64,000 nt of DNA from TPA_inf: Saccharomyces. Lineage: Eukaryota. The translations under genes were made by a program, and so were the position numbers. The DNA is taken from contig BK006946.2 of NCBI GenBank assembly GCA_000146045.2, forward strand, positions 32,001-96,000, given 5' to 3'. The notes below the pieces were generated by a model. It was given only the letters and a program-made list of their open reading frames with translations, was not told the origin of the DNA and did no database searches. Numbering within the stretch: the first letter of the stretch is position 1; each line of letters begins with the position of its first letter. Shown here piece after piece: positions 54,860 through 55,122 of this stretch.

Positions 54860-54951
54860 TTAATAAGCTATTATCGCTTTTCACGTCGAAAGGAAAAAAT
54901 AAAAGCGTAAGCAATGGTGTAGATACTTCTTATATAGACGTTATTATTACT

Positions 54952-55056
54952 ATTATTATTATTATTATTATTATTATTATTATTATTATTATTATTATTA
55001 TTATTATTATTATTATTATTATTATTATTATTATTATTATTATTATTATTATTATT
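54952..55056. repeat. Perfect (ATT)35 / (AAT)35 trinucleotide microsatellite (105 bp); two further imperfect units upstream at 54942–54950
   Basis: Direct reading shows 35 uninterrupted ATT units. It lies 66 bp beyond the RPM2 stop and about 213 bp upstream of the PRE8 ATG. It gives rise to the artefactual poly-Asn ORF at 54871..55065. Confidence 0.97.
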
Positions 55057-55122
55057 ATATGACATTAATTACTTGTAATTATGTTATAACAGTGAAATAA
55101 ATAAAATATCAAATTGTAAAGG

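Follow-up and report, generated by a model that had tools for sequence, protein, structure and literature searches.

The long perfect ATT repeat between RPM2 and PRE8 of Saccharomyces cerevisiae is the ScAAT1 microsatellite and very probably a neutral, slippage-driven tract

The longest perfect simple-sequence repeat in a stretch of 64,000 nucleotides of yeast DNA (the window), an uninterrupted (ATT)35 array, is ScAAT1, an intergenic microsatellite on chromosome XIII of S. cerevisiae. The window holds the S288C reference allele with 35 units. The repeat is already known as a strain-typing microsatellite for wine and bread yeasts and has long been in use; strain typing is its only established use. 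ScAAT1 was reportedly described by Perez et al. in 2001. It is located between RPM2 and PRE8, and we are highly confident that it is a neutral microsatellite, driven by slippage, in the spacer which joins the RPM2 terminator to the PRE8 promoter.

Results and discussion

The array and its neighbours

The genes and elements around the array are the following.

55123..58731, minus strand: RPM2 (YML091C) coding sequence, 1202 aa, protein component of mitochondrial RNase P, identical to S288C NP_013619.1
53987..54739, minus strand: PRE8 (YML092C) coding sequence, 250 aa, alpha-2 subunit of the 20S proteasome, PSA2_YEAST
51090..53789: UTP14, the next gene, Utp14p of S288C by exact look-up
54952..55056, no strand: perfect (ATT)35 core, 105 bp, by exact scan of the window
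54941..55058, no strand: whole imperfect trinucleotide array, TTA TTA TTA CTA leader plus perfect run, by Tandem Repeats Finder
54851..54859, minus strand: PACE GGTGGCAAA, Rpn4 site of the PRE8 promoter, invariant across all Saccharomyces sequences aligned

A preliminary description of the window had named the flanking genes RPM2 and PRE8, and protein look-up returned both names. The RPM2 (PF08579), Proteasome and Utp14 Pfam domains were recorded for the corresponding genes in related contigs. The RPM2 stop codon and the PRE8 start codon are separated by a spacer of 383 bp. The minus strand is the sense strand of both genes and carries the core as (AAT)35. Read in this direction, the RPM2 stop codon is followed by 64-66 nt of unique sequence, by (AAT)35 AGT AAT AAT AAC with its degenerate end towards PRE8, by GTCTATATAAGAAG, by about 70 nt and by the PACE element, from which it is 111 nt to the PRE8 ATG. 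The array is located 202-320 bp upstream of the PRE8 ATG. The distances given earlier, 66 bp from the RPM2 stop and about 90 bp from PACE, were accurate: 66 bases lie between 55056 and the stop codon at 55123..55125, and 92 bases between PACE and the start of (ATT)35.

The exact scan also agreed with the earlier statement that the run comprises 105 bp and 35 units without interruption and is the longest perfect simple-sequence repeat of the window. The runner-up in the 64 kb was (TGT)9 with 28 bp at 33928. Counted irrespective of unit borders, the maximal perfect period-3 run was 108 nt (54951..55058). By chance, about 1e-56 runs of 105 consecutive lag-3 matches would be expected in the whole 64 kb. 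Tandem Repeats Finder reported a period of 3, 39.3 copies, 98% matches and a score of 229 for 54941..55058, far above the score of every other array in the window. The sole interruption of this wider array is a C at 54950. Of the span 54942..55065 proposed initially, the repeat stood and the width did not. It was slightly too wide, beginning within the TTA TTA TTA CTA leader and stopping at the ATG of a poly-Asn open reading frame discussed below. Shorter simple repeats of the window were the perfect (TGT)9, which extends over 33928..33955, an imperfect (CAA/CAG)~17 at 12375..12424 and (TA)10 at 63728..63748.

The repeat is the ScAAT1 marker locus

For ScAAT1 the motif ATT, the location chromosome XIII 86,901-87,129 and, in S288C, a product of 229 bp with 35 repeats are listed, together with the original primers AAAAGCGTAAGCAATGGTGTAGAT and AGCATGACCTTTACAATTTGATAT (PMC3290581, Schuller et al. 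2012, Table 2). Later multiplexes employ redesigned SCAAT1 primers, with the listed coordinates XIII 86902-87140; Legras et al. 2005 are cited for the redesign, and Schuller et al. 2012 use the ScAAT1 marker (PMC3290581). These sites were located in the window.

54901..54924, plus strand: forward primer site of the original ScAAT1 set, 0 mismatches
55106..55129, minus strand: reverse primer site of the original ScAAT1 set, 0 mismatches
54902..55141: second-generation SCAAT1 amplicon, 240 bp, with forward primer at 54902..54928 and reverse primer at 55118..55141

Each original primer had a single match in the window even when two mismatches were allowed, and the two sites were convergent. The reverse site covers the RPM2 stop codon and the 4 coding bases before it. 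The amplicon, 54901..55129, is 229 bp long and holds 35 perfect units, as published. The suggestion of the preliminary description that the locus is ScAAT1 was thus borne out. The same holds for the position assumed for the window, chromosome XIII 32-96 kb: the published coordinates give an offset of exactly 32,000, i.e. 32,001-96,000 in a genome of S288C type. Marker and window repeat are alike in primer sites, amplicon, motif, unit number, coordinates and high polymorphism, and no difference was found since the window carries the reference allele itself. Other typing microsatellites, ScAAT2 to ScAAT6, C3, C4, C5 and C8, have the AAT/TAA motif class and the use in common with ScAAT1. Like ScAAT1, ScAAT4, ScAAT5 and ScAAT6 are listed by coordinates and not by ORF; with 35 units in S288C ScAAT1 is the longest, compared to 12-23 units in ScAAT2 to ScAAT5 (PMC3290581).

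The primer sites themselves are polymorphic. At 55110, where the original reverse primer is 5 nt short of its 3' end, a C>T change (plus strand) was carried by eight of the 13 non-reference assemblies examined first. Another C>T change, at 54906, is located within both forward primers, original and redesigned, and occurred in 5 assemblies. L007 and L010 had an additional change at the first base of the forward primer site, which affects the original set only, and L007 was mismatched at a second base of the reverse primer site. The loci with primer-site SNPs were L001, L003-L005 and L007-L010. The redesigned reverse primer site, 55118..55141, was free of mismatches in 13/13 assemblies. With the original primer pair, the SNPs at 55110 and 54906 could lead to alleles that amplify weakly or not at all.

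Allele length varies widely among S. cerevisiae assemblies

Contigs which encode the same PRE8 or RPM2 proteins were fetched and the tract was cut out between the conserved flanks AATTAATGTCATAT and CTATATAAGAAGTATC. Since the primer sites carry SNPs, extraction by exact primer matches missed 8 of the 10 loci tried first; fuzzy flank anchors were used for tract extraction from other assemblies. The sample consisted of 28 distinct S. cerevisiae assemblies besides the window, with flanks that were 97.5-100% identical, i.e. at S. cerevisiae-level divergence. The perfect AAT runs had 6, 10, 11, 12, 13, 16, 20-26, 28, 29, 32, 33, 35, 38 and 51 units, with the proviso that some of these lengths are from Illumina- or ONT-based assemblies in which repeats can be mis-assembled. 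Altogether, 20 distinct allele structures were present among the 28 assemblies. At the PRE8-side edge the AGTAAT unit was found in 0 to 3 copies. The difference in tract length to the window was a multiple of 3 in 27 of 28 assemblies. The exception, L002, had an extra AT within the array; this 14-nt odd allele may be real or a long-read error.

With a range from 6 to 51 units the allele length was hypervariable, as had been expected at the outset, and published strain surveys point the same way. In 258 yeasts SCAAT1 ranked with the most allele-rich of 18 loci, which had 7-33 alleles each (PMC5573751), and its allele number was again among the highest in Slovenian isolates (PMC7709452). Four assemblies were particularly instructive. 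Over 565 bp their flanks were 100% identical to the window, yet they had 26, 32, 23 and 28 units compared to 35. This indicated that the array mutates much faster than point substitutions accumulate.

Length changes are probably due to plain slippage

Unit-wise change together with a strong dependence on length is the signature of slippage at microsatellites. ScAAT1 would change its length when strands slip in replication or repair and the resulting loops are missed by mismatch repair. The tract would be a selectively near-neutral filler at the place where the RPM2 terminator meets the PRE8 upstream region. General data on yeast microsatellites show that the indel rate grows with tract length and is curbed by mismatch repair (PMC3755907, PMC9997558); ScAAT1 does not figure in these two papers.

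A stable hairpin was sought by a DNA fold of 54925..55075. The minimum free energy was 0 kcal/mol and 200 of 200 shuffled sequences folded at least as well. A hairpin or non-B structure was rejected on this ground. As the ATT strand is devoid of stable self-structure, a hairpin-driven expansion of the CAG/CTG kind is not required. Expandable CAG/CTG, CGG and GAA repeats are, like ScAAT1, long pure trinucleotide tracts with unit-wise instability. They form hairpins, whereas the ATT/AAT strand of ScAAT1 does not, and plain slippage would explain its behaviour. We know of no pathological or threshold behaviour of ScAAT1.

The array predates the divergence of several Saccharomyces species

The orthologous site was examined in other species. 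Four S. kudriavzevii assemblies had (AAT)13, 14, 14 and 17. In S. eubayanus (GCA_001298625.1) the array reads (AAT)22 AACAATAAT (AGTAAT)11 AGT (AAT)3. On the S. eubayanus-type chromosome of S. pastorianus (AAT)7 was followed by about 37 hexamers, AGTAAT or GGTAAT, in a spacer of 501 bp. Another assembly of the S. eubayanus/uvarum clade (L021 and L022) had a decayed (AAT)6-7 and then interrupted A/T-rich triplets; the L021 assembly, GCA_027557585.1, is placed in this clade by its sequence. As an observation in its own right, the S. eubayanus lineage has a compound (AAT)n(AGTAAT)n structure, with 7 + ~37 units in L020 (1000..1500) versus 22 + 11 in L023 (5119..5560).

In the alignment the array of all these species starts directly after a conserved boundary, ..TCATAT, and in all of them degenerate or interrupted units are located on the PRE8 side. 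The PRE8-side flank of the other Saccharomyces species is only about 70% identical to the window. In Nakaseomyces bracarensis the adjacency of RPM2 and PRE8 is kept with a 1-kb spacer, and no AAT array was found in it. RPM2 has a downstream neighbour other than PRE8 in Naumovozyma dairenensis and Torulaspora globosa.

Motif and boundary are shared by S. kudriavzevii and S. eubayanus, which indicates that the microsatellite predates the divergence of these Saccharomyces species. This age is based on S. kudriavzevii and on the clade of S. eubayanus. The RPM2 and PRE8 proteins of S. paradoxus, S. mikatae and S. arboricola cluster at 90% with their counterparts in S. cerevisiae or S. kudriavzevii, and these three species were left out. 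The simplest reading of the alignments would be that the array arose once, before the divergence, and then underwent expansion, interruption, formation of hexamers or decay in the individual lineages. Since then the array would have been kept alive by its own slippage dynamics. Such a history is compatible with neutral microsatellite dynamics. There is a small possibility that selection favours an A/T-rich spacer, which could also account for the persistence at one site in several species.

A further observation concerned the PRE8 protein. In S. eubayanus it is annotated with 272 aa (L023 5494..6312, P0010), starting at an upstream in-frame ATG within the promoter. The other Saccharomyces PRE8 proteins have 250 aa, and the conserved ATG is about 66 nt downstream of the start annotated in L023. 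The 272-aa form is probably due to a mis-called start codon.

The array within the transcription units

Next to the array a potential RNA processing signal was noted.

54931..54936, minus strand: TATATA hexamer, 4 nt past the PRE8-side edge of the array, read from the sequence, of putative function

On the sense strand this hexamer is followed by AGAAG and then by a U-rich stretch. In yeast, 3'-end formation uses efficiency and positioning elements. We infer that TATATA is a putative efficiency element for the RPM2 3'-end rather than a PRE8 TATA box; the latter is unlikely because the hexamer is upstream of PACE. Because the UAUAUA-AAGAA signal follows the array, (AAU)n is probably inside the RPM2 3' UTR, i.e. 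the RPM2 mRNA probably runs through the repeat.

In the multi-species alignment all conserved upstream blocks of PRE8 were located downstream of the repeat. These were an ACGT-containing block (54883..54886), GATA, the extended PACE ATTAAGGTGGCAAAA and AGAGTGGAA. As far as these data go, the functional PRE8 promoter would not include the repeat. Directly upstream of PACE all aligned Saccharomyces sequences have a conserved (T)GACGT/TTACGT..AAAA..GATA block (54870..54890, minus strand), and its ACGT core at 54883..54886 is invariant in the aligned species. The block may be a candidate site for a bZIP-type factor in the PRE8 promoter.

A second conserved element was observed on the RPM2 side. 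About 20 nt after the RPM2 stop, at 55096..55104 (minus strand), there is an AU-rich-element nonamer, UUAUUUAUU. It is part of a block, TTTATTTATTT, which is invariant in the aligned S. cerevisiae, S. kudriavzevii and S. eubayanus-type sequences. The L021 version of the block is TTTATTTATTA and the nonamer is kept. Sites of this classical AU-rich kind are bound by Cth1 and Cth2 of yeast. The nonamer may be a candidate for a conserved regulatory element of the RPM2 mRNA.

Is the array a selected regulatory element?

Possibly the array is a selected cis-regulatory or structural element in which the number of units tunes the expression of PRE8 or RPM2, in the manner of 'evolvability' promoter repeats. 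This could operate by A/T-rich nucleosome exclusion which insulates the RPM2 terminator from the PRE8 promoter, or by an A/U-rich element in the 3' UTR. In 2009 Vinces et al. (Science 324:1213) reportedly found that the length of promoter repeats affects expression in yeast. Those expression-tuning repeats and ScAAT1 are A/T-rich, variable in unit number, intergenic and upstream of a gene. Unlike them, ScAAT1 is upstream of the conserved PRE8 promoter blocks and probably in the RPM2 3' UTR/terminator. The repeats of Vinces et al. reportedly tune expression via nucleosome occupancy. The position of the array, with the RPM2 stop 66 nt before it and PACE 92 bp after it, would fit a regulatory role. 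So would the identical boundary in S. cerevisiae, S. kudriavzevii and S. eubayanus, which is maintained although the sequence after the repeat is poorly conserved. Furthermore, TAA, CAA and GAA microsatellites have been linked to nucleosome depletion, and promoter repeats can modulate expression in yeast (review PMC5622345).

However, natural strains tolerate 6 to 51 units, and the motif differs between species, being pure AAT, AGTAAT or degenerate. This argues that neither length nor sequence is constrained. Further, every conserved block of the PRE8 promoter is downstream of the array, and PRE8, which has an Rpn4/PACE promoter, belongs to the essential housekeeping genes. A literature search on PRE8 and tandem repeats found no paper linking PRE8 to a promoter repeat. 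Taken together, we consider a selected element with a tuning function unlikely. The specific version in which selection keeps the array as a long A/T-rich, nucleosome-poor spacer between RPM2 3'-end formation and the Rpn4-driven PRE8 promoter appears quite improbable. The neutral, slippage-driven microsatellite remains our preferred reading.

The poly-Asn reading frame and the assembly

The repeat creates a mechanical open reading frame.

54871..55065, minus strand: spurious 64-aa poly-Asn ORF, MSYNNN...

It was stated at the outset that this frame is not a gene, and we concur. It does start with an ATG. Yet no gene was called between RPM2 and PRE8 in any annotated assembly retrieved, the ATG is missing in S. 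kudriavzevii and S. eubayanus (alignment), the length of the product would range from about 35 to 80 aa across strains, and the frame, which runs in the sense direction of both neighbouring genes, falls between a terminator and a promoter. The chance that it encodes a real poly-asparagine protein is negligible, and the candidate was rejected. A known structured RNA was rejected as well: with the Rfam covariance models no match at E<=1 was obtained in 53500..56000.

An equally remote idea is that the length of the array is an assembly or sequencing artefact of the window; short-read assemblies do break at the repeat, but the S288C PCR product has been sized by experiment and agrees with the allele of the window (229 bp, 35 repeats; PMC3290581), and independent chromosome-level assemblies span the array. 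The breaks occurred from both directions: short-read Logan contigs stop in or beside the array coming from the RPM2 side (L014, L015) or from the PRE8 side (L043-L046). ScAAT1 is a systematic contig break in Illumina-only yeast assemblies.

Implications

A classic strain-typing marker and its chromosomal position were correctly recognised in the unannotated sequence; the value of this is mainly that of a sanity check. No new biology is implied unless an effect of length on PRE8 or RPM2 exists. If selection for a spacer were true, alleles of 6-51 units would quantitatively tune the expression of a proteasome subunit or of mitochondrial RNase P. Being older than the species, ScAAT1 is a convenient natural system for the life cycle of a microsatellite, comprising purity, interruption and conversion to a hexamer.
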